DNA from: Candidatus Electrothrix sp. GW3-4
Lineage (GTDB): Bacteria > Desulfobacterota > Desulfobulbia > Desulfobulbales > Desulfobulbaceae
Assembly (NCBI RefSeq): GCF_037902255.1
Contig: NZ_CP147990.1
Coordinates: forward strand, 4,050,001 to 4,082,000
Reading direction: 5' to 3'
Length of the DNA stretch: 32,000 nucleotides
Shown: one piece after another, positions 5,336 to 29,515 of the stretch
How the letters are laid out: each line of letters begins with the position of its first letter
Position numbering within the stretch: position 1 is the first letter of the stretch
Made by a program: the position numbers and the translations under genes
The notes under the pieces: model-generated
Told to the model about the DNA's origin: nothing
Database searches by the model: none
The model's input: the letters and a program-made list of their open reading frames with translations, nothing else

Positions 5336-5515
5336 GCGACAGGTCCTGCTTGCCGTAGCTGATCAACATCTGAGCGGCATCTGAGCAACAGGCAAAACCG
5401 GGACCTGATTCGATTCCGGCGCGAGACTGTACAGCCGGACGGGGGTTTCCTCCGGTCTGTGATAACTATTGAGGAGGCTTGCCTCCTCTGGGTGGAACTC
5501 CCGGCCTCCTTGACC

Positions 5516-8500
5516 ATGAGTAATTTGACACAGAATAGCGCAGAAAAGTTCGTTCGGCTTGTTCGATACCTCCGTGCATTATCGGCAATTAATGCAAAAA
5601 CTATCCGCACCCTGGAACAGTACCAAAAAAAGGTGCTCTGGTTGCCCCTTGACGCCGGTGTTGCCAACGTTGAACAGGATAAAGCTGATGATTCTCTCTG
5701 GATTGCGGTCAAACGGGGGGAAAAACCGCCGTTGCCCCCCCCTCCTGAGCGATGCAGGAAGTGGATTGACAAGGAGGCGTTGCAAAACCTTGATGCGACC
5801 CCTGAGCTCCGTCTTCCGCTTGACTTTATGCACACAACCCCAACGGCGGTCAACGCCCAGAGAGAGGAGACCCTTTATCCAGAGGCCTTTGCCCGAAGAG
5901 AACAGCAATGGCAGAACTATATCGAACAGCAATGGAAACCCTGGCGGGACCGTTGCCGACGCGTCCTCTCTCATGAGAAGATCTACACGGATCTGTTTCG
6001 TCTTTACCAGGAGCAGCAAAAGCTTGGTGAACAATATGAGCAGCTGCTTTGTTGCGGTTGCTTAACCTGGGAAACCCAGAACCGGGAAATTGTCCAACGG
6101 CATCTTATTGTGACGGAAGCTGCCATTTCCTTTGATCCAACCTCGAAAAGGCTGGCTGTTTATCAGACCTCACCGACCCCAAGAGTTGAGCTGGATATGC
6201 TTGCCCTGGAGGAACAACCACAAGATGCCCATACGCTCATCCAAGAGAATAATCAGGCATTAGAGGGAAATCTTCGCAAGAAAAAAGAGGTTGACAGGGT
6301 CCTCAACACCCTTGCCCAAACTCTGTTCACAGATCCTCCGGGGCAATATTTTCCTGACCGTCTTCAGCCCGAGCAAAATACCCCGACAGAACAGCCGGTC
6401 ATTACCTATGCCCCGGCCCTGATCATGAGAAAGCGGTCCATGCATCCTTTGGCGCATTTTCTCGATAAGATCCAGGATCAATCTCCACTCAGCACAGCTC
6501 TTCCAGAGGAATTTCGTCATCTCTGTGAAATGCACTCTGAAGAGACAAAGAGTGCTCTGAAAGAGGAACCGGCACAAGATCGGACTGAGGAGGCAATATT
6601 TTTCCCCCTTCCCTCCAACCAGGAACAACGCCGCATAGCCACAAGACTCAATAAGAACAGCGGGATACTTATCCAGGGCCCTCCAGGGACTGGCAAGTCG
6701 CATACAATTGCCAATCTCATCTGTCATCTGCTGGCTCAGGGGAAACGGGTGTTAGTGACAGCGCAAACCACGAGGGCCTTACATGTGCTCCATGACTTAC
6801 TCCCTGAGAATATTCATCCACTCTGTTTCAACGCCGCTGAGCAGGGCAGGCAAGAGCAAGCAGATCTGGAGCAAAAGATCAAGGCCATCTTGGCAGCAGA
6901 AAAGCTTCGCCAAGCAGCAGAGAACGAGCATATTCAGGAGCTGGAAGAGCGTATTCAGGCAAAACAACAGGCCCGGCAGACCACAGAGAAAAAGATCCTG
7001 GAGCTGCGTGAGCAAGAAACCCAGCAGCACAGGATGAATCAAGGGCATTATTCCGGAACCGCTGCTCAGATTGCTAAACAGGTACGCAAAGAGAAGGACG
7101 CCTTTTCTTGGTTTACAGATCGAATCACCCAGGACATGTCCCTCCCTTGGTCTCATCAACAACTTCTTTTCCTCCGCAAATATCTGCGTTCCACCGATGC
7201 AGGGGCAGAGAAAAAACTGGCTGGCAAAGAGCTCCCGCAACTGAAGAAAAAATTTCCAGTCCATAAGGTGCAAGAGGCCTTTGAAAAAGAAGAACAGGCC
7301 CGTCAGGCTGCATCTCTTGGAAGACAACGCCTCCAGAGCGGGTCGGGTAAGATGCTCTTTCAGGCAGGCAAAGCAGACCGAAAGGCAATTGAAGGAATAC
7401 GAGATCAGCTTGCTGGCTTTACCGAGACGGTGCGGGAATTGCAGCGGCGTCCTATGCCCTGGATTGCACCAGCTGTTTCTGATGTGCTCTGTGGGCGTAA
7501 CGCTGTCTGGCAAAATTTATTGCAACTCTCCCAGGAGGCTCTTCAAGATCTCCAGAAACTCATTGATCGGATTGATACCCTGGAGGTTGATATCTCCTGG
7601 GAGATCGATCGAAAAAAGCTCCTGCAGGATGCGCTGGCCCTGAAAAGGCATTTCAAGGCAGGAGGACGGGCGGGCAAATGGATTTTTAAGCCGGAAATCG
7701 TTCGAAAACATGCCACCTTACTCAGCAAGATCAGGATAGACGGTCAGCCCTGTAACACGCTGGACGCTCTGTGGAAGCTGGTCGATTACCTCCTGGTTGA
7801 TCGGAAATTATATTATGTCTGGCATCTCTGGGAGGGAAGGGCTGAACGAAGCACTGGCCATTTTTCTCTCCAATTTGCCGAAATCGAAGAACTCCTTAAA
7901 ACCCTACAACAGGTCCTTGCTCTCCATAAAAAACGAAAACTCCTGGAAGAACGACTGGGTTCGATCAATGGCCTGAACATGCCGGACTGGTCAGATGTCT
8001 CTGCTGTCCAGAGCCTGTTGGAGGACTGTCAGGCAGCGCTTGCCCGCCTTGATTTTCTCTGGCTCGGTTCTTCAATAACCCATGCCCAGAAGACACTTTC
8101 TGTCTTTGCCCAACGAAGCAATGCCCATCCGATAACGAAACTGGTTATTAAAAGTCTGCAAAAGAGAGATATCGAGACCTATCAACACCTCTTTACCGAG
8201 ATTGAAGACCTCAACCTCAAGAACAATGAACGGGTGGAGAAGAACCACCTGCTTGATGAACTGGCTGACATCGCACCTCAGCTGGCCACGCAACTGAGAA
8301 ATGGGCAGGAAAGGAGAGAGTGGGCAGATCGCCTTGGGCAGCTTGAACGGGCCTGGGCCTGGGCACAGGCCCAGGACTGGTTGCAGACCTTTCTTGCCAA
8401 TGACCTGGAAAGCCACCACCGACAGAGCCAGCGGCTTGCGCAGCAGATCAGAGAAGAACTTTCTGCCTTGACAGCTGCCAAGGCCTGGCAGCATTTTTTT

Positions 8501-9946
8501 CGTAAGATAACTCCGCAGCAACGTGGGCACATGGTGGCTTGGCAGCAGGCCATGAAAAAATTCGGCAAAGGAACAGGAAAACATGCGCAGACCCATAAAG
8601 AAAATGCCCGTCGCCATCTGAATGCCAGCCGAGCCGCTATTCCGGTCTGGATTATGCCGCTCCATCGTGTTTACGAAACCGTGCCCGCGGAACCTGGCTT
8701 CTTTGATGTCGTTATCGTTGATGAGGCCTCACAATGCGGACCTGAGTCCTTACCCCTGCTTTACCTTGGGAAACAAATCCTTGCGGCGGGAGATGATAAA
8801 CAGATCAGCCCGGAGGCTGTGGGGATAAACCGGGAGCATGTGCAGCAGCATATGCAGAACGCCCTCTTTGATTTTGAGTATGCCGATTCCTTTGATGTGG
8901 ATTCCAGCCTTTTTGACCATGGTCTCCTCCGTTTTGGCAATCGAATCGTCTTGCAGGAACATTTTCGTTGTATGCCGGAGATCATCGCGTTCAGCAATAC
9001 CCATTTTTATCAGGATGATCCTCTGGTCCCTCTTCGCCAATATCTGCCAGACCGGCTCCCCCCCCTCAAGGCAGTTTTGGTCAAAAATGGCTCCCGGCAA
9101 GGACAGGGGCAACGAACTATCAATCAGCAGGAGGCCGAGGCCTTGGTTGCGGCTGTCGTCCAATGTTGCCAGGAGAAACGTTACCAGGGAAAAACAATGG
9201 GCGTTATCGTCCTTCAGGGGATAGCCCAGGCCTATCTGATCGAAGAATTATTAATCAGGACGCTTGGGGTCGAGGAAATGGGGCGGCGCAGGCTTATCTG
9301 CGGCAACTCCTCCAGTTTCCAGGGCGGTGAACGAGATATTATCTTTCTCAGTATGGTGACTGCTCCTGAGCAGAAAATCCGAGCCCTGACCAAGGCAGCA
9401 GAACAACATAAATTTAACGTGGCTGCCAGTCGTGCCCGCGAACAGATGTGGCTCTTTCACTCTGTTCAGGAAAGGCATCTGCGCCCTGAATGTTTACGAT
9501 ATAAATTGATAAAGCATTTTCATTGTTCAGCTATACAGCATGCTGGTATGGCACCGAGTGAACAGGATGAGTTGCGGACAGCAGCGCAGCAGGCCAACAG
9601 GGCTGTGGAGACCCCGCCGGCACCGTTTCAGAGTTGGCTGGAAGTGGATATGGCCCTCCATCTCGGGGAGATGGGATACAGGATTATCCCGCAATATGCC
9701 TTTGCTGGCAGAAAGATAGATCTGGTTATTCAGGGGCAGCGGGCCCAGTTGGCTGTTGCCTGTGATAGTGATCAATGGCAGGGGGCGGAGCTGTATCTTG
9801 CTGATTTGGAACACCAAGAAAAATTGAAAAGATGTGGCTGGCAGGTGTTCAGGATTCGGGCAAGCCGTTACTATGCAGATCCAGCCAAGGCCCTGGACCC
9901 CCTTGTCCAGGGCCTTGAGCAGTTGGAAATCTTTCCAGCGCCTTGA
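5516..9946 (+). CDS. Large SF1 (Upf1/DNA2-like, AAA_11/AAA_12) helicase with a long coiled-coil insertion and a C-terminal Vsr/DUF559-like endonuclease-fold domain
   Basis: Walker A is GPPGTGKSHT (nt 6676-6699) and motif II is VIVDEASQ (nt 8711-8734), about 2 kb later. Further helicase motifs are FRCMPEIIAFSN, GGERDIIFLSMV and NVAASRAREQMWLF. The C-terminus WLEVDMALHLGEMGYRIIPQYAFAGRKIDLVIQGQRAQLAVACDSDQW...WQVFRIRASRYY matches the DUF559/Vsr-like layout. The ORF opens at GTG 5459. I chose the first ATG at 5516, so the start is uncertain. Confidence 0.8.
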   Translation: MSNLTQNSAEKFVRLVRYLRALSAINAKTIRTLEQYQKKVLWLPLDAGVANVEQDKADDSLWIAVKRGEKPPLPPPPERCRKWIDKEALQNLDATPELRLPLDFMHTTPTAVNAQREETLYPEAFARREQQWQNYIEQQWKPWRDRCRRVLSHEKIYTDLFRLYQEQQKLGEQYEQLLCCGCLTWETQNREIVQRHLIVTEAAISFDPTSKRLAVYQTSPTPRVELDMLALEEQPQDAHTLIQENNQALEGNLRKKKEVDRVLNTLAQTLFTDPPGQYFPDRLQPEQNTPTEQPVITYAPALIMRKRSMHPLAHFLDKIQDQSPLSTALPEEFRHLCEMHSEETKSALKEEPAQDRTEEAIFFPLPSNQEQRRIATRLNKNSGILIQGPPGTGKSHTIANLICHLLAQGKRVLVTAQTTRALHVLHDLLPENIHPLCFNAAEQGRQEQADLEQKIKAILAAEKLRQAAENEHIQELEERIQAKQQARQTTEKKILELREQETQQHRMNQGHYSGTAAQIAKQVRKEKDAFSWFTDRITQDMSLPWSHQQLLFLRKYLRSTDAGAEKKLAGKELPQLKKKFPVHKVQEAFEKEEQARQAASLGRQRLQSGSGKMLFQAGKADRKAIEGIRDQLAGFTETVRELQRRPMPWIAPAVSDVLCGRNAVWQNLLQLSQEALQDLQKLIDRIDTLEVDISWEIDRKKLLQDALALKRHFKAGGRAGKWIFKPEIVRKHATLLSKIRIDGQPCNTLDALWKLVDYLLVDRKLYYVWHLWEGRAERSTGHFSLQFAEIEELLKTLQQVLALHKKRKLLEERLGSINGLNMPDWSDVSAVQSLLEDCQAALARLDFLWLGSSITHAQKTLSVFAQRSNAHPITKLVIKSLQKRDIETYQHLFTEIEDLNLKNNERVEKNHLLDELADIAPQLATQLRNGQERREWADRLGQLERAWAWAQAQDWLQTFLANDLESHHRQSQRLAQQIREELSALTAAKAWQHFFRKITPQQRGHMVAWQQAMKKFGKGTGKHAQTHKENARRHLNASRAAIPVWIMPLHRVYETVPAEPGFFDVVIVDEASQCGPESLPLLYLGKQILAAGDDKQISPEAVGINREHVQQHMQNALFDFEYADSFDVDSSLFDHGLLRFGNRIVLQEHFRCMPEIIAFSNTHFYQDDPLVPLRQYLPDRLPPLKAVLVKNGSRQGQGQRTINQQEAEALVAAVVQCCQEKRYQGKTMGVIVLQGIAQAYLIEELLIRTLGVEEMGRRRLICGNSSSFQGGERDIIFLSMVTAPEQKIRALTKAAEQHKFNVAASRAREQMWLFHSVQERHLRPECLRYKLIKHFHCSAIQHAGMAPSEQDELRTAAQQANRAVETPPAPFQSWLEVDMALHLGEMGYRIIPQYAFAGRKIDLVIQGQRAQLAVACDSDQWQGAELYLADLEHQEKLKRCGWQVFRIRASRYYADPAKALDPLVQGLEQLEIFPAP

Positions 9947-10104
9947 TCTGCTTTGCAGAGAAAAATCTTTCTCGACCAATCGAACCTTACGGAAAGATTA
10001 TGATTTACATTTACGCACAACCTGTTTAATTAATAATGATTAATTATAGTCTGTTCTCTAGAGCGGGAACAGCTGCGTAATGCATTTCGCAGATATACCT
10101 TCAC

Positions 10105-10182
10105 CCTGGCCCAGCAAGCCGGGACAACAAAACATGAAAGGTGGAAAGCCTGGCCAGCTTCGCCAACTACGTTCATATACAT
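10105..10182 (+). promoter_or_regulatory. Copy 1 of the repeated structured 5'-leader element (candidate cis-regulatory RNA)
   Basis: The first hairpin is CCTGGC-ccagcaa-GCCGGG. It is followed by the 20-mer ACAACAAAACATGAAAGGTG, which is identical to copy 2. Then come a small variable hairpin and the TTCATATACA box. ATGAA at 10134-10138 can pair with TTCAT at 10172-10176. The element lies 18 nt upstream of the ATG at 10200. Confidence 0.6.
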
Positions 10183-10199
10183 CAACCAAAGAGGACTGC

Positions 10200-14957: not shown

Positions 14958-15442
14958 AGTGTTCTCCCTTGTCTGCACGTTATGTTCTCTGTTCTCAGGG
15001 ATGGATTTGTCCACCATACGCAGCAGGCTGTTGTTTGTCAATGAAACAACGGGCAGTTATTGGCTATTGCCTTGGAAGAGAGAGCGTCAACGTTCACATC
15101 CCGATACCTTCCCCTAGCGAACCTGCCCGGCTCTGCATTGTCAGAGGTATCACGGCAGACGCCCATCGGATATCCTTTTTCCTGCCATCCCAGCCTTTAC
15201 ATGGACCAGGGATGTGCTGTGGGACAGGTTATGCCCGGTACTCGGGCGTTCTTCCCGATAAAATGAGCTTGTCCCCCTATTGTCCGGGTCGGAATAACCA
15301 TGTTATTTATTAACAAATAAGAAAAAATCAAAAAACATAACACCAACGTGACAGATTGATCTCTGTGATGATCAGGCAGGTAAAGGGCTTGCCTCCTGTC
15401 CACCAGGCTGTTGAATTGAATGAACTGAAAATAAGGAGAAAA

Positions 15443-16633
15443 ATGAAAATTCTATTAAGCAGCATCACCCTGCTGCTGGTCATCCTTGCAGGAACGGTGC
15501 AGGCAGGACAGCAAGACATGAAAGATCTCGGTGCCGAGGTGATTCAAACGGCCTTCTCCAAGCTGCGATTCTCCAGGGTCACAGCTGCCAATATCGCCTG
15601 CCTGACCAATGCCGGTTATGTACAGCATAAAGGAAAAAACACCCTGATGTTATACGATGTACTCCAGGACCACACAGGGATCAGCCTGGGTCGGGGCAAC
15701 CTGCTCCCCATGTACAGCGGGCCATACCAGCCACTCTGGTTCGCCTTTGTCTATAAAAGAATGCCGGGAGAGCTCCTCCTTACCTATGTTGTCGTCAAGG
15801 AGGAAGGAGCAGAGGCTACCAAGCCCATCAATATCTATGTGCATAGGCACCAGTCCTTTGCGCCCTTTACAGAACTACTCGGAGAAAAAGCACTTCCTAT
15901 AATCACTATGGCGAACGGCTGGGCCGACGGAATGCCGGAAGACCTTCTCCAGGGTGCCCTGTATCATGACCAGTTCTGTAGAGGAGTCCTCACCGGATAC
16001 TTCACGGCCCGTTTTATCCAGAAGCATTTTTCCCTGATCACTATGACCAATAGCTGGGACGATGCGACGCCTGAGGACCTGCTGCAGGGTACCCTGTCGC
16101 ATGACCATTTCTGCAGCGGGGCCATTACTGGCTATCTCACGGCCCGTTTTATCCTCAATACCTTCCCTCTCCGCAAAGGAGAGCAGTATACCTATATTGG
16201 GGTTCCAGGATGGTGCCGGGATGATTATCTCCTCCATTACCTCAACTTGAGCCCAGGAGAACGCGGCTATTACCTCATGTCTTCTCCCAAGCCCTGGCTG
16301 AAGACGAAACAGAAAGAGAAGAACGACGGCATTGTCATCCGCTTCAATAGCCAGGAGAACACCGGGCAGGCCGCAGCGCTCCGTTTTGACCGGCATGAAG
16401 ATGCCTTCCGGGAGTTCATCGGTGAACCAAAACTGGAGCTGGACTGGAAGAAGGAGCCTTGGCTGCATGTCTGGTACAACCGCTTTTTCCTCAGCCATCG
16501 CGATGAACCGAAGTACTTTGTCTCGGTGGTGAAGACAAAGGACCTGGAGAGCAAAGAGGAATTTGAGGCGCTGGTCGCCCCAGGCACGAATCCGCTGGAG
16601 GTGATCATTGGAGAGAATGCCTCCAGGAACTGA
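15443..16633 (+). CDS. Periplasmic FmdE-like domain protein with an internal 45-aa tandem duplication
   Basis: AAGGAG lies upstream of the ATG at 15443. The signal peptide is MKILLSSITLLLVILAGTVQA. There are two copies of an FmdE-type H-[DG]-[QH]-F-C-x-G-x-[LI]-TGY motif: YHDQFCRGVLTGY and SHDHFCSGAITGY. Confidence 0.6.
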   Translation: MKILLSSITLLLVILAGTVQAGQQDMKDLGAEVIQTAFSKLRFSRVTAANIACLTNAGYVQHKGKNTLMLYDVLQDHTGISLGRGNLLPMYSGPYQPLWFAFVYKRMPGELLLTYVVVKEEGAEATKPINIYVHRHQSFAPFTELLGEKALPIITMANGWADGMPEDLLQGALYHDQFCRGVLTGYFTARFIQKHFSLITMTNSWDDATPEDLLQGTLSHDHFCSGAITGYLTARFILNTFPLRKGEQYTYIGVPGWCRDDYLLHYLNLSPGERGYYLMSSPKPWLKTKQKEKNDGIVIRFNSQENTGQAAALRFDRHEDAFREFIGEPKLELDWKKEPWLHVWYNRFFLSHRDEPKYFVSVVKTKDLESKEEFEALVAPGTNPLEVIIGENASRN

Positions 16634-16737: not shown

Positions 16738-16893
16738 TCCTGCAAAAAGGTGATTTCATCAGGGTTAGTCCATGATTCGGATGAAGTTTCTGTTTACTCT
16801 TTCCTGCTTCCATGTTAATCGCAAGATGAAGGAGACAATAGCGTCGAAGGCCACGAATGCATTTTTCCGAAAAAGGATTTTCAATCATTTGAA

Positions 16894-17826
16894 ATGTGGC
16901 AGCAATTCATCAATTTCATGGAAGAGTCCATGGGGATCCCGGCCTCTTTGCATGAAAGAGTCTTTTCCACAATAATCATCGTATTTCTTTATGTTCTCAT
17001 TCGGAAAGTCGGCTCTGCCATAATTGGCCGACGTACCGAAGATGCCTCCAGAGAATACATCCTTAGCAAATCACTTGCATGTTTTTCAGGGGGGCTGGTT
17101 GTTATTATCCTTATTCGTGTCTGGCTCGGCGGCATTAAGGGGATGATGGCTTATTTCGGGATACTGTCGGCCGGTCTGGCTATCGCACTTCAGGATCTTC
17201 TCACCAACCTCGCAGGATGGATATTCATTTCCAGTCGCAAGCCTTTCACTCTGGGTGACCGCATCCAAATCGGCGATCATGCGGGTGATGTGATTGATTT
17301 GCGTCTCTTCCAATTCTCCTTAATCGAAATCGGAAAATGGGTAAAGGCTGATCAAAGCACAGGCCGCATCATAAATATCCCGAACGGACTTGTTTTTAAG
17401 GAATCCGTGATAAATTATACGCAGGGCTTCAGCTTCATCTGGCATGAAATTTCCGTCACGGTGACCTTTGAAAGTAATTGGGAGAAGGCAAAGTCAATGT
17501 TAACTGAAATCGCTAATCGTCATACCGCTATTAAAAGTGAACAGGCTGCCCAGGAAGTGAGACGTACGGCCCGGAACTATCTGATTCACTATCAACATTT
17601 GACGCCCATTGTTTGGACATCAGTGACCGATTTCGGCGTGACACTGACGATTCGCTATCTCTCAGATCCTCGAAAAAGACGCTCATCTGAACAAGTCATT
17701 TGGGAGGATATTCTTCGCGCTTTTGCCCAACACAAGGATATAGACTTTTCCTATCCGACAATGCGCTATTACGATAATGTCGTTGAAGGAAAGGAGGGTG
17801 CCCGTGCTACACGACCACCCCGGTAA
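16894..17826 (+). CDS. Mechanosensitive ion channel (MscS family) protein
   Basis: 310 aa. It has N-terminal TM helices and the MscS beta-domain pattern GDRIQIGDHAGDVIDLRLFQFSLIE...GRIINIPNGLVFKESVINYT. Confidence 0.8.
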   Translation: MWQQFINFMEESMGIPASLHERVFSTIIIVFLYVLIRKVGSAIIGRRTEDASREYILSKSLACFSGGLVVIILIRVWLGGIKGMMAYFGILSAGLAIALQDLLTNLAGWIFISSRKPFTLGDRIQIGDHAGDVIDLRLFQFSLIEIGKWVKADQSTGRIINIPNGLVFKESVINYTQGFSFIWHEISVTVTFESNWEKAKSMLTEIANRHTAIKSEQAAQEVRRTARNYLIHYQHLTPIVWTSVTDFGVTLTIRYLSDPRKRRSSEQVIWEDILRAFAQHKDIDFSYPTMRYYDNVVEGKEGARATRPPR

Positions 17827-18377: not shown

Positions 18378-18521
18378 CAATCCTCCAACAAAGTGATTTT
18401 ATCAGGCTGACCATGGGGCCCAGATGAAGTTTCTATTTATTCTTTCCGAGGTCCATGTTAAGCACAAGAATAACATAGAGAGTTTCCACTTATTAACACT
18501 GCTAGGTCACGGAGTCCTCGA

Positions 18522-19040
18522 TTGAATCAAACTCTGCCCCATCGCGACAAGGATGCCGTCCTGACTCTATATGCCCACTATTTCTTGGCGAGTGAGCTAA
18601 TGCTTAAGAACTATAAGAAGCTCCTTGCCAAAAGGAACCAAAGCGATCGACTGAACCAGAACGATCGTGTTCAACTATCAATATACTTCTGCACCTGGCT
18701 CGGCTTCCTTGCTGTGACTGCCGAGGGATTCAAGAAGCTGGGGATTCGTAGAGTGGTTAAGGATGCTCGCCCTCCAGAGTTTGTCGAGTTGATTCCTAAG
18801 ACTGATGCATTGGGAAAACTTTTGAAGAAGCATGACGATGCATTGAGAAAATTCCGAAACAAAGTCTTCCATCTGCGGGAAAACACTGAGGAGATCGAAC
18901 GATTTTTTCGCGAACGACCTAATAGGGTGGAGTGGGCTGAGAACCTCCAAACTGCATTCAACGAATTCTTCTCAGCCTATAGAATTCTTTGTCAAGTTCA
19001 CTATCTGATCGAGAAACGCAAAGAGGAATTGTTTAAATAG
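18522..19040 (+). CDS. Hypothetical all-alpha protein with an R-N-x-x-x-H (HEPN-like) motif
   Basis: 172 aa with a TTG start and GGAG 7 nt upstream. The motif FRNKVFHLRE lies at nt 18855-18872. There is no signal peptide or TM segment, and the region is AT-richer. Confidence 0.5.
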   Translation: MNQTLPHRDKDAVLTLYAHYFLASELMLKNYKKLLAKRNQSDRLNQNDRVQLSIYFCTWLGFLAVTAEGFKKLGIRRVVKDARPPEFVELIPKTDALGKLLKKHDDALRKFRNKVFHLRENTEEIERFFRERPNRVEWAENLQTAFNEFFSAYRILCQVHYLIEKRKEELFK

Positions 19041-22184: not shown

Positions 22185-22597
22185 TCAGGAATCGCTCCCT
22201 TCCCACCCTCGTGCAAAGGAGATACCCTTCCTGTAAAGCCCTTCTGCCTTTCCCTCTCCTTTTCCTCTTTACGCATGAATGACCGGTACCCCCGAGAAGT
22301 TTCGGGGGCTGCCCGCATACCCAGGGAGTTTTCCGTATTCCTTGGGAGAATTGCCCAGCTGTTCGGGCAGGTTTCTTCACTAAAAAGATCTTAATCGCAG
22401 ATTACATCCCTGCAAAGAAAGGCACATTACCAGTTCCCTCCCCCCTTTTCCCCTGCCTAGATCCACCCGTATGCCCTCCCGATCTCGGGAGGATTTCCTG
22501 CTAAAATGAGCCTATTACCTTATTGTCCAGGCGCTTTTTCTTTGGTAGTCATCCTACCACAAAGTTTATTTCATAAGCACGAGAGATCAAATGCAAG

Positions 22598-22632
22598 GAG
22601 CCCCCTCTTCTGCTGAGCAGAAGAGGGGGCTC
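22598..22632 (+). promoter_or_regulatory. Perfect 15-16 bp GC-rich hairpin in the TBDR 5' leader (attenuator/terminator-like)
   Basis: GAGCCCCCTCTTCTGC-tga-GCAGAAGAGGGGGCTC lies 46 nt upstream of the TBDR ATG and is followed by AGCCTTATTATAT. Confidence 0.6.
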
Positions 22633-22678
22633 AGCCTTATTATATGGATGAGCGAAAAAGAAGGAGAAGAAACAAGGC

Positions 22679-24808
22679 ATGAAGAACAACAGGAAACTTC
22701 CCTGGCTTATTCCGGTGCTGCTGTTGGCCGGAGTGACCTCTGCGACGGCAGCCGAAGAACAGGCAAAAGACGCGAAAAACGATATCAAGGAGATGGAAGA
22801 GATCGTGGTCTCAGCAGAGAGCGGTGCCCAGGGCATTGTCCTGACCCCAACCGAGACCGTGATCAACACCGAGCAATTCAACAGCATCGGTGCGGCAAGC
22901 ACGGTGGATGAGGTGCTCAAGCACCATAGTATTATTGATTCCCGGGCCCAGTCCGATCTGGTCCCGGATGACGACACCATCACCCTGCGCGGTTTCAGCA
23001 ACAACCGCTTTGTCACCGCCCTGGACGGCCTGACCATTCAGAAGACCGGGGGCCGCAAGAGTTCTCATATCGTTGACTTTGCCCTCCTCCCTACCTTCCT
23101 GATTGAGAGCATCGAGATCCTGCCCGGTCCCCACTCGGCCCTCTACGATGCCAAGGGGATCGGCGGGGTGCTCAACCTGGTGAGCAAGCGCCCGCAAAGA
23201 CGGGACAGCCTGAAGCCGGATGTCAGCCTGTCCACCGGCCTCCGTTCCTATAACACCCAACGCCATAACCTGAGCGTGGAAGGCGGGATCCAGAACTTCA
23301 CCTACGATCTTGGCTACCAAAAGGACTCCTCTGATGGCTACCTCCGTAACCATGAATCGGATATCGATACCGTTTTTACCCGCTTTAGCTATCTCCTGCC
23401 CGATGACGGCCTGATCACCCTCAGTGGCTCCTATACCTGGGCCGACAGAACTATCCCGGTGAAGAACCCAGGGACCGCCCAGGACGGCAGTGAAGACTAT
23501 GACAGCTCCTATCCGGTCTATGAGGATGCCTCCTTTGAGCCCTGGGAGGACCCGGACTGGAATAAGGACGCCTATTCCCTGCGTCTGCACGGGGACAAGG
23601 CAACCGCCATCGGTACCCTCTCCCTCAATGCCTACACCAGCAAGGAGGATCGGGACCGGGCCTACTATGTCAAGGAGGGCAAGGACATTGTCTATACCCC
23701 CTGGCTGACCGAGTGGTGGCAGCATGGCGGTAAGCTCCAGGATGAGATCCAATGGAATGAGGACCACACCACCACCATCGGGGCTGATCTGGTCCAGATG
23801 TACGATGACGGCATTGTCGATAACGAGGACACGGAGCGGATCAACAAAAAAGGCCTCTATGTCCAGCACCAATGGGCCCTCCTCCCCAGTCTGGACCTGC
23901 GTCTGGGCGCACGCTACGAGGATGTCACCATCTGGGTGAGTAACGGATCGAGCTCGCCTTACATAGCAGGCCAGGACATGGCCATTGAACGCAACTGGAG
24001 TGAGCCTATTCCCAAGTCCTTCCTGACCTGGAAGATGGACGAGCTCACTCCCTGGCTGCGGGACACCTCCCTTTCCGCCGGTGTCAGCAAGATCTGGCAT
24101 GCCCCGGATTACCACGGCGACTATAACCCCCAGGGTAAACCGGCTGGGGCCTGGCTGGAGCCTGAACACGGCATGGGCTATGACCTGGTCTTCACCCGCC
24201 GTCTCTGGCGGGATATCGCGCTCAAAGCGAACTACTCCTTTTACAGTATTGAGGATTATATTGCTTATAACCGGAGCTTTGCCAAGTACGGCAGCTCAAA
24301 GGCCGGAGCTTTGGCCTATTCCGATTATAAGATCAACCTGGAAGAGATGCAGCGGCACGGCCTGGAGCTGGAACTGGACGGGCATATCACTGATGATCTT
24401 TCCTTTTACCTCACCTATGCCTGGCAGAACTTTGAAAATCAGGGGAATGAACCCGCCGGAGAGCAGGTGCAGGACGGTCAGGCCGAAAATCGCCTTACCC
24501 TGGGACTGCGCTATGACCTGTTCGAGAACACCATGTTGATGCTCGACTACTCCTATCAGGGCGCAGAGGTTACCGAGGTGTCCGAGGAGGTCCAGCCCGA
24601 TACCTGGGTTTTCCATGAAGTGGAGAACCCTTCCTACAGTGTCTTTGATCTCGGATTCGAGCAAACCCTGCTGGAGAATGCCTATCGTATGCAGGATGTC
24701 AAACTAAATCTGTACGTCAAGAACCTCCTTGATGAAGAATACTATGAAACCAAGGGCACGCCGTCAACGGACCGGACCTTCGGGGCCATTCTGTCCATGC
24801 GCTTCTAG
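22679..24808 (+). CDS. TonB-dependent outer-membrane receptor
   Basis: The signal peptide is MKNNRKLPWLIPVLLLAGVTSATA. Plug motifs are EEIVVSA, ITLRGF and IEILPGPHSALYDAKGIGGVLNLVSK. A long beta-barrel ends in the terminal aromatic ...ILSMRF. Confidence 0.9.
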   Translation: MKNNRKLPWLIPVLLLAGVTSATAAEEQAKDAKNDIKEMEEIVVSAESGAQGIVLTPTETVINTEQFNSIGAASTVDEVLKHHSIIDSRAQSDLVPDDDTITLRGFSNNRFVTALDGLTIQKTGGRKSSHIVDFALLPTFLIESIEILPGPHSALYDAKGIGGVLNLVSKRPQRRDSLKPDVSLSTGLRSYNTQRHNLSVEGGIQNFTYDLGYQKDSSDGYLRNHESDIDTVFTRFSYLLPDDGLITLSGSYTWADRTIPVKNPGTAQDGSEDYDSSYPVYEDASFEPWEDPDWNKDAYSLRLHGDKATAIGTLSLNAYTSKEDRDRAYYVKEGKDIVYTPWLTEWWQHGGKLQDEIQWNEDHTTTIGADLVQMYDDGIVDNEDTERINKKGLYVQHQWALLPSLDLRLGARYEDVTIWVSNGSSSPYIAGQDMAIERNWSEPIPKSFLTWKMDELTPWLRDTSLSAGVSKIWHAPDYHGDYNPQGKPAGAWLEPEHGMGYDLVFTRRLWRDIALKANYSFYSIEDYIAYNRSFAKYGSSKAGALAYSDYKINLEEMQRHGLELELDGHITDDLSFYLTYAWQNFENQGNEPAGEQVQDGQAENRLTLGLRYDLFENTMLMLDYSYQGAEVTEVSEEVQPDTWVFHEVENPSYSVFDLGFEQTLLENAYRMQDVKLNLYVKNLLDEEYYETKGTPSTDRTFGAILSMRF

Positions 24809-24833
24809 TAAGCATCTTGCGATCCCCCCTCAT

Positions 24834-24911
24834 CCCTCCCCTCTGGGGAGGGACAACAAAACATGAAAGGTGGGAAGCCGGGTCGGTTTCATCGACCACT
24901 TTCATATACAA
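24834..24911 (+). promoter_or_regulatory. Copy 2 of the repeated structured 5'-leader element (candidate cis-regulatory RNA)
   Basis: The first hairpin is CCCTCCCC-tct-GGGGAGGG. It is followed by ACAACAAAACATGAAAGGTG, then the inner hairpin GAAGCCG-ggt-CGGTTTC, then CTTTCATATACAA. ATGAAAG at 24863-24869 pairs with CTTTCAT at 24899-24905. Confidence 0.6.
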
Positions 24912-24961
24912 ACATTTCCCCTTCAAAGGAGGGGAAGCATGAGACACGAAGAAAAGGAGAA

Positions 24962-26665
24962 ATGACTATGTGGAGAAGCATTCAATCACAAAGAAGCAAA
25001 AGCAGTGCCCTGTTGACGGCCCTGCTCTGGGCGTTCGCGTTCATTGCCGGTCTCAGCGGCAACGCCACGGCCGCCGAACCGCAGCAGCAGACAGGCAGTT
25101 TTAAGGTCGTGGGCGTAGGCCCTGGCGACGGTGACCTGCTGACCCTCAGGGCGGTCAAGGCCATTGAGGACGCCGAGGTGGTCTTTTGCAGCACCCGCAA
25201 GCAAGAAGGCCTGGCCTCAGCAGTGGATTTCAGCGGCAAGGAGGTCATTGACGGCTATGGGGTCCTGTTCTGGCATTACGGCAAGGAATGCAGCAAGAAT
25301 GAGGTCAAACACTTCAAGCAGCGGATGAGCTGTGAGGAGTACCATGCCAAGCAGGCAGCATTTGCCCGCATGGTGCGCAACGCGGTCGCCCAGGGCAAGG
25401 ATGTGGTGATGTTGAGCAGTGGTGATCCCACCATCTACGGCCCGGATATCTGGACCCTGCGAGAACTGAGCGAGCTGGATACCGAGCTGATTCCTGGTCT
25501 CAGTGCCTTTAATGCCGCCAATGCGGCCCTGGAGGCCAGCCTGGGTGAGGTGATTATCACCGCCCCCTTTATCAGCAAGGATGGGGAGCAGGACAGCCTG
25601 GAGCAGCTCTCCGCTCATGAAAAGGCCACCATGGTCATCTTCATGCCCTGGGATATAGGGAAGACCTTTCAGCGCTTAGCCAAGACCTATCCGGCAGAGA
25701 CCCCGGCAGCCGTGGTCAGCAATGCCGGTATGACCGGGAAAGAAAAGGCCGTTCTCGGGACCGTGGGCAGTTTTGCTGCGGACTCCTCTGGCCTGGACGG
25801 CAATCGCTCCATTATCTATGTGGGGGAGCGCTTGGAGCAGGCCCAGTTTACCAAGACCCCGGACAAGACGGCAGGAAAAGGAAAGTACTATCTGGTGGGC
25901 ATGGGGCCCGGCGACCCTGATCTGGCCAGCCTTCGGGCCATGAAAGTTATTCAAGAGGCGGATATCATTTTCAGTGGTGAAAAAATCAAGAAAAAATTTC
26001 AAGAAGTGCTCAAAGGAAAAGAGGTCATCAGCGGCTATCACCGGCTCTTCCCTTATTACGGTAAGACCTGCAGCAACAGCGAAGATGACGACAAACGCAA
26101 AAACGGGATGAACTGCCAAGAGTACCATCAGAAACAGGAAGAGTTTGCCGCCAGGGTACGCAAGGCCGTGGCTGAGGGTAAGACTGTAGCCATGCTCGAC
26201 AGCGGCGATCCCCTGGTCTATGGCCCCTGCTCCTGGTCGATCACCGAACTAAAAGACCTGGATACCGAAGTGGTGCCCGGAGTCAGTTGTTTCAATGCGG
26301 CCAATGCAGCCCTCAAGGCCGGGGTTACCGAGGGGAAAACCTCCCATTCGGTTATCCTGGCTTCAGGCTGGACCGTGGATGAAATGGCTCGCCATCAAAG
26401 CACCATGGTCCTGTTCACCATGCGCAACGAGTTCAAGAAGTTCATTGATACCCTGACGAAATATTATTCCCCGGATACTCCGGCTGCTGTTGTTGTCCGT
26501 GCTGGCTATGCCCAGAATGAACGGGTGGTCCACGGTACCCTGGGAACCATGCTCGACCAGGTGGGCAAAAAAAAACTGCCCTTTGAATACATGCTCTATG
26601 TGGGAGATTTCCTAAAAACGAGCCCGGATCGCATCCCGGCTCCGACTGTCTCGCAATCATTATAA
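24962..26665 (+). CDS. Secreted tandem tetrapyrrole-methylase-fold (CbiF/CobM-like) protein
   Basis: The Sec-type signal is M(T)MWRSIQSQRSKSSALLTALLWAFAFIAGLSGNATA-AEP. There are two TP_methylase-like halves. The first (about 25100-25860) has VVGVGPGDGDLLTLRA...SSGDPTIYGP...IPGLSAFNAA. The second (about 25886-26620) has LVGMGPGDPDLASLRA...DSGDPLVYGP...VPGVSCFNAA. The start is the ATG at 24962 or at 24968. Confidence 0.75.
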   Translation: MTMWRSIQSQRSKSSALLTALLWAFAFIAGLSGNATAAEPQQQTGSFKVVGVGPGDGDLLTLRAVKAIEDAEVVFCSTRKQEGLASAVDFSGKEVIDGYGVLFWHYGKECSKNEVKHFKQRMSCEEYHAKQAAFARMVRNAVAQGKDVVMLSSGDPTIYGPDIWTLRELSELDTELIPGLSAFNAANAALEASLGEVIITAPFISKDGEQDSLEQLSAHEKATMVIFMPWDIGKTFQRLAKTYPAETPAAVVSNAGMTGKEKAVLGTVGSFAADSSGLDGNRSIIYVGERLEQAQFTKTPDKTAGKGKYYLVGMGPGDPDLASLRAMKVIQEADIIFSGEKIKKKFQEVLKGKEVISGYHRLFPYYGKTCSNSEDDDKRKNGMNCQEYHQKQEEFAARVRKAVAEGKTVAMLDSGDPLVYGPCSWSITELKDLDTEVVPGVSCFNAANAALKAGVTEGKTSHSVILASGWTVDEMARHQSTMVLFTMRNEFKKFIDTLTKYYSPDTPAAVVVRAGYAQNERVVHGTLGTMLDQVGKKKLPFEYMLYVGDFLKTSPDRIPAPTVSQSL

Positions 26666-26674
26666 CGTCCATCT

Positions 26675-26750
26675 CGCCCCCTGGGGCGGGACAACAAAGT
26701 ATGAAAGGTGATCGGACGACTCCAAGGAGTCGTCGGTACTTTCATATAAA
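26675..26750 (+). promoter_or_regulatory. Copy 3 of the repeated structured 5'-leader element (candidate cis-regulatory RNA)
   Basis: The first hairpin is CGCCC-cctg-GGGCG, followed by GG and ACAACAAAGTATGAAAGGTG. The inner hairpin CGGACGACTCC-aa-GGAGTCGTCGG is unrelated in sequence to copies 1 and 2. CTTTCATATAAA follows. ATGAAAG at 26701-26707 pairs with CTTTCAT at 26739-26745. The SD GGAG follows immediately. Confidence 0.6.
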
Positions 26751-26762
26751 CGGAGAATCTTC

Positions 26763-27590
26763 ATGAATCTGTTTCGTTGCATATTATCTTGCGCGCTTAT
26801 CAGCGTTTTTTCCCTGCTGCTCTGCTCATCAGCAGGGGCCCATAAGATCTGGCTCAATCCTGCGGATCATTTCCCTGAGCCTGGCAGCACCGTGGAGATC
26901 GGGATCGGCTGGGGCCATAAGTACCTTGAAGACCGTACCCATGAAGAACTGAAAAAGGGGATGCCGGAGAAGATCCAGGCCCTTGATCCTGACGGCAAGA
27001 CCGTTGAACTGACCAAGCTTGCCGATGACCGCTACAGCCTAGAGGTCCCGAAACCGGGCCCTTATCTGATCAGCGTGAAGAACAAATCCGGTTTTTTCTC
27101 CACCACCCCGGAGGGGAGAAAATGGGGCAATAAGACCGAGATTGCCGACGCAGTAAAATGTACCAATTATCATCTTGGTGGCAAGACGGTGCTCATGGTT
27201 GGCAAGGGCGCGGAAGGCTTTGACAGACCCGTTGGCCAAGACCTTGAGATCATTCCGCTCACCAACCCAGACCAACTGAAAAAAGGCAATACCTTGAAAG
27301 TCAGGGTGCTCCTCAATGGAAATCCTGCCGCATTTATTCCTCTGAAGGCCGCCTATGCTGGCTTTGAAAAGGCCGAGAAAGAAGGGGAAGCCGCTCCCTC
27401 GACCATGAACAAAAAGGAGGAGAAGCCATTTCCTGCGGAAGCTATCACCGATGCTCAAGGAGAAGCCGAACTCCGACTGGATCGTCCTGGTTACTGGATG
27501 GTCTCGCTGTCCCATAAGCCCCCCTATCCTGACGCAGCGATCTGTGATCAGTACATGTACAATATGACCTTTACTTTTCAGGTACGATAA
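26763..27590 (+). CDS. DUF4198 domain periplasmic protein (NikM-like Ni/Co-uptake-associated family)
   Basis: The signal peptide is MNLFRCILSCALISVFSLLLCSSAGA. The predicted mature N-terminus is HKIWLNP...GWGHKY, the typical DUF4198 start. GGAG lies 8 nt upstream of the ATG. Confidence 0.7.
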   Translation: MNLFRCILSCALISVFSLLLCSSAGAHKIWLNPADHFPEPGSTVEIGIGWGHKYLEDRTHEELKKGMPEKIQALDPDGKTVELTKLADDRYSLEVPKPGPYLISVKNKSGFFSTTPEGRKWGNKTEIADAVKCTNYHLGGKTVLMVGKGAEGFDRPVGQDLEIIPLTNPDQLKKGNTLKVRVLLNGNPAAFIPLKAAYAGFEKAEKEGEAAPSTMNKKEEKPFPAEAITDAQGEAELRLDRPGYWMVSLSHKPPYPDAAICDQYMYNMTFTFQVR

Positions 27591-27609
27591 CCTGTTCCTT
27601 GCCATCTCC

Positions 27610-27650
27610 CTGTTCCCGACTGGGCAGTCCTGGCGGTCGGGAGCAGTTTT
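27610..27650 (+). terminator. Candidate rho-independent terminator after the DUF4198 gene
   Basis: The stem is CTGTTCCCGAC ... GTCGGGAGCAG (11 bp including one G-U pair), followed by TTTT. Confidence 0.5.
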
Positions 27651-27659
27651 CCTTGCGTT

Positions 27660-29081
27660 ATGAAAAAATCATTCAATACCAAGAACGACCTGACCCGTGA
27701 GGTCGGCCTGTCCTCGGCAACAGTCCTGGTGATCGCCAATATGGTGGGCACCGGTGTTTTTACCACCTCGGGCTTTATCCTCAAAGAACTGGGCGACCCG
27801 CGGGCCCTGCTGCTCTGCTGGCTGTTCGGTGGCCTGTTCGCCCTGTGCGGAGCCTTCTGCTTTGGAGAACTCGGAGCCCGTTTTCCCCGGGCAGGGGGAG
27901 AGTATGTCTTTCTCCGGGAAAGTTTCGGCAGGCCAGTAGCCTTTTTATCCGGTTGGATATCGCTCTTTGTCGGCTTTTCCGCTCCCATTGCCGCAGCCTC
28001 CATGGCCTTTTCCTCTTATTTCTCTCAGGCATTTGGTCTGCCAACAGACGGTGCGTTTGTCTTCAGTCCCTTCGGGGTCCCCATGATCACCCTGTCTTGG
28101 TTTAACCTGATCGCCCTGCTGGTCATCGGGACGTTCACCCTGATTCATTATCACGGTCTTCGTACAGGCACCAAAGTGCAGAACGGACTGACCCTGTTCA
28201 AAATTACCCTGATCATCGTTTTTATTATCGGTGGGTTTACCTTTGGCAAGGGGTCAATCGAGCATTTCAGTGCACGCCAAGACCTCTTCGCTACCTTTTC
28301 TTCAGAAAAATTCGCGGTCTCCCTTATCTTTGTCTCTTTTGCCTACAGCGGCTGGAACGCAGCAGCCTATCTTGGTGGAGAGATTATCAATCCCCGGCGC
28401 AATATCCCCTCTGCCCTGCTGATCGGGACTGCCGTGGTAACGGTACTCTATCTGCTCCTCAATGCGCTCTATATCTACGCTGTTCCTATTGGCCAACTGG
28501 CCGGAGAGGTGGAAGTGGGGGCAAAGGCAGCCATTGGTCTGTTCGGCACAAACATCAGTCGTTTTTTCAGCGCAGCCGTGGCCTTGGGGCTCCTCTCGGT
28601 GGTAAGTGCTATGGTCATGACCGGTCCCAGAATCTACTATGCTATGGCCCAGGACGGGGTCTTTTTTTCGGTCTTCGGAAAATTAAATCCGCTCCATCAT
28701 ACCCCGGCCTCATCAATCTTTCTCCAGGCCGGTATAGCGGTTATCATGGTGCTGTCCGCCTCCTTTGAGACCCTGCTGATCTATATCGGCTTTACCCTGT
28801 CCCTGTCCGCCATGCTGACCGTTGTCGGCCTGATGCGCATCCGTTGGCGGGAAGGAAAAGCCCCCAACCTGTACCAGACACCTGGCTATCCGCTGACGCC
28901 CCTCTTGTTTATTGCAGCGAACAGCTGGATCATCTTTTTCTCCGTACGAAGCCAGCCTGTGGCTGTCCTGTTTGCCCTGGGCACCATTGCTGTGGGCATG
29001 CTTGTCTACCTTTTGACAGGGACGAAAAAAGAGGATGACCAAGACCCGGCCCTGACAGCGGAAACAGAGCCAACCTATTAA
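27660..29081 (+). CDS. APC-superfamily amino acid permease (LAT/SteT-like)
   Basis: 473 aa with about 12 TM segments. The N-terminal motif is GTGVFTTSGF...GELGARFPRAGGEYVFLRESFG. Confidence 0.85.
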   Translation: MKKSFNTKNDLTREVGLSSATVLVIANMVGTGVFTTSGFILKELGDPRALLLCWLFGGLFALCGAFCFGELGARFPRAGGEYVFLRESFGRPVAFLSGWISLFVGFSAPIAAASMAFSSYFSQAFGLPTDGAFVFSPFGVPMITLSWFNLIALLVIGTFTLIHYHGLRTGTKVQNGLTLFKITLIIVFIIGGFTFGKGSIEHFSARQDLFATFSSEKFAVSLIFVSFAYSGWNAAAYLGGEIINPRRNIPSALLIGTAVVTVLYLLLNALYIYAVPIGQLAGEVEVGAKAAIGLFGTNISRFFSAAVALGLLSVVSAMVMTGPRIYYAMAQDGVFFSVFGKLNPLHHTPASSIFLQAGIAVIMVLSASFETLLIYIGFTLSLSAMLTVVGLMRIRWREGKAPNLYQTPGYPLTPLLFIAANSWIIFFSVRSQPVAVLFALGTIAVGMLVYLLTGTKKEDDQDPALTAETEPTY

Positions 29082-29158
29082 AAATCAAAAGGCAATCAGG
29101 TACGATCTCCTACTTATAAGCAGGATCAATATCATCAAAAACTCCCAGAGTAACTCCA

Positions 29159-29515
29159 ATGAATAATAGAACAAAAAAACAAGGTTTCTTTCTCTCACTT
29201 CTCATCCTCGGCCTCCCCCTCTTCTTTTCCGTTCAAGGACAGGCCCACGGCGTGCATGGTGATACCGGGAGCGGCAGCAAAGCCATCTGCACCTCTGCTT
29301 CCTATGAGGACGGCGAATCAATGAGCTACGCCACAGTGGAAATTATCGCCCCAAATGCCAAACTCCCGTTCCAGACCGGCCGGACTGACCGGAACGGGTA
29401 TTTCTGTTTCCGACCGGATACACCGGGTCGTTGGAAGATCACGGTCAAGGATGAGGATGGCCATTTTATCCGTCTGGGTACCAAGGTGAGCAAAGAGATG
29501 TTGAACGATGAATAA
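29159..29515 (+). CDS. Small secreted carboxypeptidase-regulatory-like (transthyretin-fold) protein with a His-rich mature N-terminus
   Basis: The signal peptide is ...LILGLPLFFSVQGQA and the mature start is HGVHGD. The core ATVEIIAPNAKLPFQTGRTDRNGYFCFRPDTPGRWKITV fits the CarboxypepD_reg pattern. Confidence 0.6.
   Translation: MNNRTKKQGFFLSLLILGLPLFFSVQGQAHGVHGDTGSGSKAICTSASYEDGESMSYATVEIIAPNAKLPFQTGRTDRNGYFCFRPDTPGRWKITVKDEDGHFIRLGTKVSKEMLNDE

Follow-up and report, generated by a model that had tools for sequence, protein, structure and literature searches.

A stretch of 32,000 nucleotides from Candidatus Electrothrix sp. GW3-4 (contig NZ_CP147990.1, positions 4,050,001 to 4,082,000; this whole stretch is called the window in the following) carries five genes in a row on the + strand. 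They code for a TonB-dependent receptor (TBDR), an exported protein with two tetrapyrrole-methylase folds (TPM), a DUF4198 protein, an APC permease and a small NikL-like protein. The five genes are a real operon which is kept across sulfate-reducing bacteria. With moderate confidence we regard the locus as one copy of a widespread, undescribed TonB-dependent module for trace-metal acquisition in anaerobic Desulfobacterota, with nickel and/or cobalt as the likeliest cargo, probably bound to a small organic ligand. The parts are of known kinds, metal uptake by TBDRs and proteins of the NikK and NikL type; what is new is their combination with TPM, a LAT-type permease and receptor variants carrying either His/Asp or Cys/selenocysteine (Sec).

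An original prediction, made from the letters of the window, had called this gene combination unusual, and that stands: we found no published description of the set. Literature searches covered the gene combination, exported tetrapyrrole-methylase-fold proteins and FmdE in metal uptake, and gave no description of any of them. A survey of nickel in cable bacteria does not mention the locus (PMC11247825).

The operon and its relatives

The gene set and the predicted domains were borne out by the listing of open reading frames (ORFs) and by Pfam and NCBIfam. Signal peptides can be read on 4/5 of the proteins, the permease being the exception. Pfam and ORF scans found no ABC transporter, TonB, ExbB or ExbD within the 32-kb window.

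A scan of a genome collection with an alignment of TPM gave 78 loci, which were analysed by tblastn of the window proteins and by clustering of all ORFs. The double-domain TPM is present in 50 of them, essentially all from Desulfobacterota apart from a few metagenome-assembled genomes with other labels, and ranges over Electrothrix/Electronema, Desulfosarcina, Desulfatitalea, Desulforapulum, Desulfonema, Desulfarculus, Desulfocarbo and Syntrophobacteraceae. Taking loci with enough flank as denominators, a TBDR gene comes before the TPM gene in 37/47 and a DUF4198 gene after it in 45/46; the permease gene is downstream in 36/41 and at another place of the locus in two more, and the NikL-like gene is downstream in 29/41. 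The gene order is kept in Electrothrix, Desulfosarcina, Desulfatitalea, Desulforapulum, Desulfarculus and Syntrophobacteraceae. Planctomycetota have a simpler arrangement with a single-domain TPM followed by DUF4198. The P-type ATPase gene upstream and the HEAT-repeat gene downstream of the operon are not kept as neighbours at the related loci. Three APC homologues picked regardless of context all lie in the same module, even with a changed gene order, and the permease is a genuine operon member. The original prediction had singled it out as an atypical inner-membrane transporter for a TBDR locus and had named loss of synteny in other genomes as a sign against the system; the five genes turned out to be syntenic.

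The lack of ABC transporter and TonB-ExbBD genes, also part of the earlier description, is true of the window but is only a local arrangement. At several related loci a DUF3450-ExbB(long)-ExbB-ExbD-TonB-TPR cluster lies directly upstream (L008, L011, L014, L027, L029, L045, L048 and L050), and at one it is ExbB-ExbD-TonB (L090). One locus has the order APC-NikL-CbiM-CbiQ-ATPase (L046), and genes for CbiM or other energy-coupling factor (ECF) components adjoin the set in L026 and L030 and in the Planctomycetota loci L058, L070 and L072. A Nik/Opp-type ABC transporter adjoins the module in L005, L007 and L033. After the NikL-like or FmdE-like genes of 21 loci (L008, L011, L014 and L022 among them) there is a gene for a fusion protein of ~1,090 aa with MFS-like, spermidine-synthase and TPR parts, translationally coupled to the FmdE-like gene. 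In Desulfatitalea genes for TrmO-like, DUF3842 and CxxCxxCC proteins recur near this fusion gene.

All five predicted genes are real members, but the system is larger than five genes. In the window a gene for a secreted FmdE-domain protein is found 6 kb upstream of the operon. We count it in the system because it shares an upstream motif with the TBDR gene and because at 13 other loci its homologue comes after the NikL-like gene; we regard it as a detached member. The motif (Table 1) lies in a wider imperfect dyad, CC(Y)G-N2-AAAATGAG-N8-CTYATTGT-N-(Y)RGG, and the form common to both window sites and other cable bacteria is CCCGATAAAATGAG-N8-CTYATTGTnCGGGC. Copies precede the same operon in other cable bacteria (L002 7538-7559; L003 69-90 and 1681-1702; L005 9826-9847; L006 6268-6289), and the site ahead of the FmdE-like gene aligns with eight other sites which cable bacteria carry ahead of TBDR or TPM genes. 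In the conserved block before the Electrothrix TBDR genes there is no RNA covariation; an RNA structure was therefore rejected and the block treated as a DNA motif. It is a candidate for a shared operator or promoter element tying the FmdE-like gene to the operon. No palindromic operator common to the TBDR upstream regions across Desulfobacterota was found. The FmdE-like gene itself contains a tandem duplication of 118 nt (15902-16019 and 16037-16154, 77% identity) which gives two HDxFCxG segments.

The first three gaps between the genes had been described as structured. This was confirmed by folding, with z-scores against shuffled sequences of -3.35 (24815-24915), -4.53 (26665-26760) and -2.02 (27588-27662). 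The first two gaps are copies of a dispersed repeat of ~85-90 nt, present in three same-strand copies which each end 15-50 nt ahead of a gene start. The repeat is missing from all 78 related loci and gave 11 stray single matches among 241 million metagenome records. Rfam returned nothing for the window at the gathering threshold and nothing relevant at E<=10. A riboswitch in the gaps is ruled out by this null result together with the shared gap motif, which is a dispersed repeat with its third copy before an unrelated hemerythrin gene. As the repeat also precedes the hemerythrin gene, is missing from the related loci and matches nothing in Rfam, the gap structures are real but part of a genome-specific dispersed element and not a regulatory RNA of the system. 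The repeat looks like a REP-like (repetitive extragenic palindromic) or MITE-like (miniature inverted-repeat transposable) element or a 5' untranslated region module specific to this genome.

Could the five genes then be unrelated neighbours, or separate transcription units without a common function? The long and structured gaps of this genome and a weak hairpin ahead of the permease gene speak for it. The hairpin had been put forward as a candidate terminator at 27610-27650 which may separate the permease gene from the genes upstream; it failed the terminator scan and is not seen in orthologues, whose DUF4198 and permease genes are 0-10 nt apart or overlap. Since the gaps are filled by the dispersed repeat, since order and strand are kept over several orders and through rearrangements, and since start and stop codons overlap in orthologues (permease with NikL-like gene and FmdE-like with next gene in L022, DUF4198 with permease gene in L050), we consider this explanation extremely improbable.

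Table 1. Features of the operon, the detached gene and the repeats (window positions)
Feature	Position	Strand	Remarks
Third copy of dispersed repeat	10094-10185	+	before unrelated hemerythrin gene
Copy of upstream motif, AAATGAG-N8-CTYATTG	15261-15282	+	1 mismatch; ~160 nt ahead of FmdE-like start codon
Secreted FmdE-domain protein	15443-16633	+	Pfam FmdE 1.8e-8; ribosome binding site and ATG at 15443
Upstream motif, AAATGAG-N8-CTTATTG	22504-22525	+	155 nt ahead of TBDR start codon
Perfect 16-bp hairpin in TBDR 5' leader	22598-22632	+	z = -5.42; sequence not kept in relatives
TBDR	22679-24808	+	plug and barrel; non-selenocysteine sister of FCYXU selenoprotein TBDR family
Dispersed repeat, TBDR-TPM gap	24823-24910	+	core GGGACAACAAAAYATGAAAGGTG ... 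TTCATATACA
TPM	24962-26665	+	567 aa, secreted; two class III (tetrapyrrole) methyltransferase-fold domains
Dispersed repeat, TPM-DUF4198 gap	26661-26750	+	core GGGACAACAAAAYATGAAAGGTG ... TTCATATACA
DUF4198/NikK-like periplasmic protein	26763-27590	+	Pfam PF10670
13-bp hairpin followed by UUUUCC	27610-27646	+	-24 kcal/mol; weak candidate attenuator
LAT/SLC7-type APC permease	27660-29081	+	AA_permease_2, 186 bits
NikL-like secreted beta-sandwich protein	29159-29515	+	118 aa; mature N-terminal His

The five proteins

The first gene codes for a TBDR with an N-terminal plug, a 22-strand beta-barrel and an aromatic end. Pfam gives the plug at 5e-15 and the barrel at 3e-25, the C-terminal residue is Phe, and the AF2 (AlphaFold2) model (pLDDT 78.7) has plug and barrel and finds TBDRs in Foldseek. 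A fold search for the substrate class was uninformative, all TBDRs scoring alike. Against NF049945, the FCYXU selenoprotein family, the window TBDR scores 765 bits, which is under the cut-off of 825; where the family has Cys-x-x-Sec with an in-frame TGA it reads W-HAPDYHGDYNPQG, and the mature protein is without Cys or Sec. The motif at this place, W-H-A-P-D-Y-H-G-D-Y-N-P-Q-G (residues 473-486), is present in the window TBDR and 29 relatives, with W473, A475, P476, D477, H479, G480, Y482, N483, Q485 and G486 strictly invariant. It sits in a 21-residue loop of the model, and by strand parity, counting back from the C-terminus, it is on the extracellular side.

Sister receptors at the same type of locus have this His/Asp motif swapped for Cys-x-x-Sec or Pro-Cys-Pro-Sec. 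The selenoprotein receptors are always beside TPM genes and are of the FCxxU kind in L020 and L023 (FCEV-U and YCQV-U at the motif position) and of the PCPU kind in L037 and L075. Their genes have the in-frame TGA at the motifs SFCEV-U-SWGSG and RLPCP-U-DYYWW (L020 9036-9038, L023, L037 ~3144-3146, L075); the L020 receptor passes NF049945 with 1021 bits and the L037 receptor NF049947 (PCPU) with 1287 bits, both adjoining TPM genes. An external loop in which hard and soft ligand residues are exchanged would be expected of a direct metal site, and suggests one. In the nickel survey of cable bacteria no TonB-dependent transporter was related to the known Ni(II) transporters of this class (PMC11247825).

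For TPM the best start is the ATG at 24962, which has AGGAG before it. Pfam recognises two TP_methylase domains (292 bits), and the model (pLDDT 80.5) matches CbiF/CobM, NirE, CysG and CbiL in Foldseek with TM 0.8. Each domain has the class III methyltransferase fold with the glycine-rich pocket for S-adenosylmethionine (SAM), keeping the motifs GxGPGD, GDPxxYGP and PGxS.FNAANAAL, and in addition an inserted Cys pair. The SAM-pocket motifs do not vary among homologues in either half, nor in the single-domain forms of Planctomycetota. TPM falls below the pathway equivalog models to which it is most similar, with 201 bits against 259.65 for cobM_cbiF and 158.9 against 163.25 for cobI_cbiL, and is likewise under every cut-off of the CobA/CysG, CbiH and CobF models; it passes a single model, TIGR02467 (CbiE equivalog-domain), with 110.5 bits from four matched stretches taken together, against 92.9. 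All TPM homologues carry signal peptides or lipoboxes, many of them lipoprotein signals, which suggests that the family is exported. From the model, the single chain copies the homodimer of class III enzymes. The paralogues of TPM multiply alongside TBDRs in some genomes (L037, L020), as ligand-binding partners do.

Two candidates concerning TPM were set aside. The Cys pair of the insert as a universal metal site is ruled out by its absence from the Planctomycetota TPMs; because the pair is not universal, a disulfide is more likely than a functional site. A 754-aa fusion of TPM and DUF4198 (L092, 6740-9004) was considered as Rosetta-stone evidence, but it lacks the C-terminal end of TPM and the first 60 residues of DUF4198, and the TBDR gene next to it is frameshifted; it is likely a deletion or a long-read assembly error.

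The DUF4198 protein scores 151.5 bits against the PF10670 cut-off of 34 and has a signal peptide with the cleavage site ...SSAGA|HKIW. His27, the mature N-terminus, and a W-G-H52 motif are invariant among 42 orthologues from two phyla. The protein matches both NikK (9gcb) and Zcp (9mhi), the latter being the best solved match (E = 1e-23). The small protein at the end of the operon gives sub-threshold matches only, to CarboxypepD_reg (weak) and to the NCBIfam NikL model NF058648, where it reaches 45.8 bits of the required 100 over profile positions 5-90 of 180. It ends after the beta-sandwich and so departs from the NikL architecture with a C-terminal anchor and nikM/Q/O alongside; NikL-like orthologues outside Electrothrix keep the membrane anchor, which is lost here. 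The His at the mature N-terminus is invariant in these proteins too. By sequence the DUF4198 protein is a relative of NikK and the small protein one of NikL, both accessory subunits of the Nik ECF transporters.

The only characterised DUF4198 protein is Zcp of Neisseria gonorrhoeae, for which a zinc-binding His triad has been described (PMC12663993). A rival model is that the locus takes up zinc or another divalent metal, with DUF4198 as a capture or buffer protein like Zcp and the rest as lineage-specific accessories. Besides the match to Zcp, the occurrence of TBDR-DUF4198 pairs in Zur and Fur regulons of Proteobacteria fits this. The residues aligned with the triad (Zcp 29-31 and 142) are D-H and K in the window protein, however, and the N-terminal His with W-G-H resembles NikK-type proteins. 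No Zur-like palindrome is common to the TBDR upstream regions, and the regulatory and neighbourhood signals found are of Ni/Co type (see below). We hold uptake of zinc to be quite unlikely.

The permease has the APC/LAT fold with the G-x-G motif of transmembrane helix 1 and the aromatic-G-W motif of helix 6. It scores 214 bits with TIGR00911, under the subfamily cut-off, and its best PDB matches are LAT2 and BasC. The substrate motifs are invariant in 42 orthologues, which are without any invariant His/Cys/Met motif or cluster. The canonical LAT/SLC7 motifs are kept and no such cluster is present; the probable substrate is a molecule resembling an amino acid, not a bare ion. Another rival model is that the cargo is a metal-free organic nutrient, e.g. 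SAM or a related amino-acid derivative, which is imported by the TBDR, bound in the SAM pocket of TPM and taken through the inner membrane by the permease. It agrees with the invariance across phyla of all SAM-pocket motifs in both TPM domains, with the amino-acid-binding motifs of the permease and with the SAM-related genes recurring nearby, i.e. the spermidine-synthase-like fusion at 21 loci and the TrmO-like genes. The model leaves unexplained the obligatory DUF4198 partner, the NikL-like protein with its N-terminal His and the receptor loop with Sec/Cys or His/Asp, as well as the NikR-like boxes, B12 riboswitches and adjacent CbiM modules of the relatives. A purely organic cargo is in our opinion very unlikely.

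Cargo and mechanism

Two kinds of regulatory signals at related loci point to nickel and cobalt. The box GTRTTAY-N13-RTAAYAC occurs 11 times in the 1.29 Mb of loci, against ~0.15 expected by chance; all 11 are in Planctomycetota (L053, L054, L059, L062, L063, L065, L067, L069, L071, L072 and L078), and 9/11 boxes lie within ~1.2 kb upstream of (DUF1559)-TPM-DUF4198 genes. It matches the NikR consensus reported for Deltaproteobacteria (PMC545781). If the boxes are NikR sites, those ahead of DUF1559 operons would link the DUF1559 (pseudopilin-like) protein to metal uptake. Cobalamin riboswitches precede the TonB-TBDR-TPM clusters of L014 (126 bits) and L050 (115 bits), and a B12 riboswitch upstream of a TBDR gene has been given as the signature of predicted cobalt-specific TBDRs (PMC7689651).

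The module is proposed to work in the following way. The TBDR would bind a metal species at its external loop and import it by means of a TonB system encoded elsewhere in the genome. In the periplasm the DUF4198 and NikL-like proteins would capture the metal via their N-terminal histidines and hand it to the inner-membrane Ni/Co importer NikM(L)QO, adjacent in some genomes and present at another locus in cable bacteria (PMC11247825). In view of the features of TPM and of the permease given above, a cargo of metal plus organic ligand is proposed. TPM, a pseudo-dimer of methylase folds away from cytoplasmic SAM, might be the periplasmic binder of the organic part, which could be a tetrapyrrole-like or a SAM/amino-acid-like ligand. 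The permease would then carry an amino-acid-like ligand, and not the bare metal, over the inner membrane, either to take it up or to recycle it.

The proposal can be elaborated into a complete pathway for sulfidic sediments, in which nickel or cobalt travels on an amino-acid-type (possibly SAM-derived, nicotianamine-like) or a tetrapyrrole-type ligand. The TBDR with its His/Asp or Cys/Sec loop would import the complex, the methylase fold would strip off or hold its organic part, the metal would go to the NikK/NikL-like proteins, the permease would recycle the ligand, and the MFS/spermidine-synthase fusion would make and export this ligand. In this complete form we regard the pathway as speculative, with a rather low chance of being right.

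Several observations weigh against a Ni/Co module. All evidence for a metal is indirect. The original prediction had suggested a look for NikR and B12 regulatory sites, and the window has neither: no NikR operator (GTGTTAC-N13/14-GTAACAC or reversed) was found in it with up to 3 mismatches, and no NikR box or B12 riboswitch is present in the window or at other cable-bacterial loci. In the Desulfobacterota loci NikR boxes do not exceed chance, only its resemblance to the consensus links the Planctomycetota box to NikR, and the riboswitch is found in only 2 of the ~9 Desulfobacterales clusters with an upstream TonB system. The Ni/Co assignment is thus taken from relatives, the window itself being without these signals. 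The closest solved DUF4198 protein binds zinc, though its His triad is not kept here. To our knowledge an APC permease in a TBDR system is without precedent, the periplasmic methylase fold keeps all SAM-pocket motifs for no reason that we can give, and the ligand roles of TPM and of the permease are conjecture. Nickel and cobalt, which were among the cargoes first suggested together with a metal-amino-acid chelate and a corrinoid or tetrapyrrole fragment, nevertheless stand as the best-supported direction, whether as metal ion, chelate or tetrapyrrole.

The tetrapyrrole deserves a model of its own. It postulates salvage of corrinoids or other metallotetrapyrroles: a tetrapyrrole with cobalt or nickel, such as F430, a precursor of cobamides or a Ni-porphyrin from the sediment, enters through the TBDR, TPM as a descendant of CbiF/CbiL binds it in the periplasm, and the DUF4198 and NikL-like proteins receive the freed metal. 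The nearest relatives of TPM are corrin-pathway methyltransferases which bind cobalt-precorrins, the multiplication of TPM paralogues with TBDRs and the many lipoprotein signals are as for binding proteins, and the periplasmic CbiK-P of Desulfovibrio, itself the paralogue of a B12 enzyme, sets a precedent (PMC4063343). B12 riboswitches lie ahead of the L014 and L050 clusters, as said, and nearby in L022, L037 and L077, and ChlI/ChlD-like chelatase subunits are encoded nearby in L010 and L077. On the other hand no BtuCDF-type importer is found at these loci, and most loci are without a riboswitch; the window, having neither an Rfam cobalamin match nor ABC genes, is not of BtuB type. The NikR-like boxes of Planctomycetota fit a metal better than a corrinoid, and the switch from His/Asp to Cys/Sec in the loop of the receptor points to a directly coordinated metal. 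The permease would be left unexplained, and binding of a tetrapyrrole would not require the SAM-pocket motifs to be kept. Salvage of this kind is, we think, unlikely.

How anaerobes in sulfidic sediments acquire nickel and cobalt at the outer membrane is largely unknown. The module proposed here is kept in complete-oxidising sulfate reducers, cable bacteria and anaerobic Planctomycetota, groups with a strong reliance on enzymes of Ni and Co. The conductive fibres of cable bacteria require nickel as well, and if the proposal is true the pathway might help to feed this high demand. A receptor of the outer membrane specific for cobalt is still to be confirmed (PMC7689651). The locus further places the selenoprotein TBDRs, catalogued only recently, in a genomic and functional setting and points to a candidate metal-binding loop, and it would give the exported "tetrapyrrole methylases", a large family, a part in transport. 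Genome pipelines now name these precorrin methyltransferases; for the exported proteins the name is likely an annotation error which could distort reconstructions of the B12 pathway.

Two other observations were made in the window. A 47-nt direct repeat (16780-16826 and 18423-18469, 83% identity) precedes a gene for an MscS-like channel (16894-17826) and an unannotated ORF (18522-19040), which may share a promoter or leader. A 1495-aa protein encoded at 5459-9946 (+) has superfamily-1 helicase domains (AAA_11/AAA_12) and a C-terminal REase_MTES_1575 nuclease domain, and could be a defence-type gene.

Comparison with known systems

The closest comparison for the metal-handling part is with the NikMQO (CbiMNQO-type) transporters, whose NikK and NikL are homologous to the DUF4198 protein and the small protein described here; in both cases the proteins are exported with a His at the mature N-terminus. 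Directly after the NikL-like gene of Desulforapulum (L046) come CbiM-CbiQ-ATPase genes, and the split of Nik and Cbi systems in their regulation is mirrored by the NikR-like boxes or B12 riboswitches at the loci of relatives. The window differs in having no M, Q or O subunit and a NikL-like protein which is anchorless and under the family cut-off. Three parts of the present module do not occur in Nik/Cbi systems and are added here: the TBDR, the protein with methylase folds and the APC permease. Zcp resembles it in that a periplasmic DUF4198 protein is likewise encoded or co-regulated with metal-uptake TBDRs; Zcp handles zinc via a His triad that is not kept here, works with ZnuABC under Zur regulation, and has no TPM or APC partner.

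Among receptors the window TBDR is the closest non-selenoprotein relative of the NF049945/NF049947 families, true members of which are found beside TPM in the same type of operon. The families differ from it by their Sec, the window TBDR being without Cys/Sec and under the cut-off, and they carry no assigned function. OprC (copper, with a CxxxM-HxM site) and Helicobacter FrpB4/NikH (nickel) are likewise TBDRs with a cluster of metal ligands on the extracellular side. OprC gives the best TM-score with the model (0.71), though all TBDRs score similarly. Sequence identity of these receptors to the window TBDR is only 14-17%, and the putative motif, WHAPDYHGDYNPQG or its Cys/Sec counterparts, is a different one.

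TPM has the fold of CbiF/CobM, CbiL and CobA/NirE/CysG and their SAM-pocket motifs, twice over. These enzymes are cytoplasmic, whereas TPM is exported to a place without an obvious supply of SAM; it differs further by a family-specific insert of ~28 residues carrying the Cys pair and by its place in a transport rather than a biosynthetic operon. In the BtuB-BtuG and HmuR-HmuY pairs the gene for a binding protein or lipoprotein is likewise directly beside the TBDR gene. The folds of BtuG and HmuY are unrelated to that of TPM, the binding role of which is conjectural. In Desulfovibrio CbiK-P, too, a fold of the B12 pathway has been recruited to the periplasm (PMC4063343).

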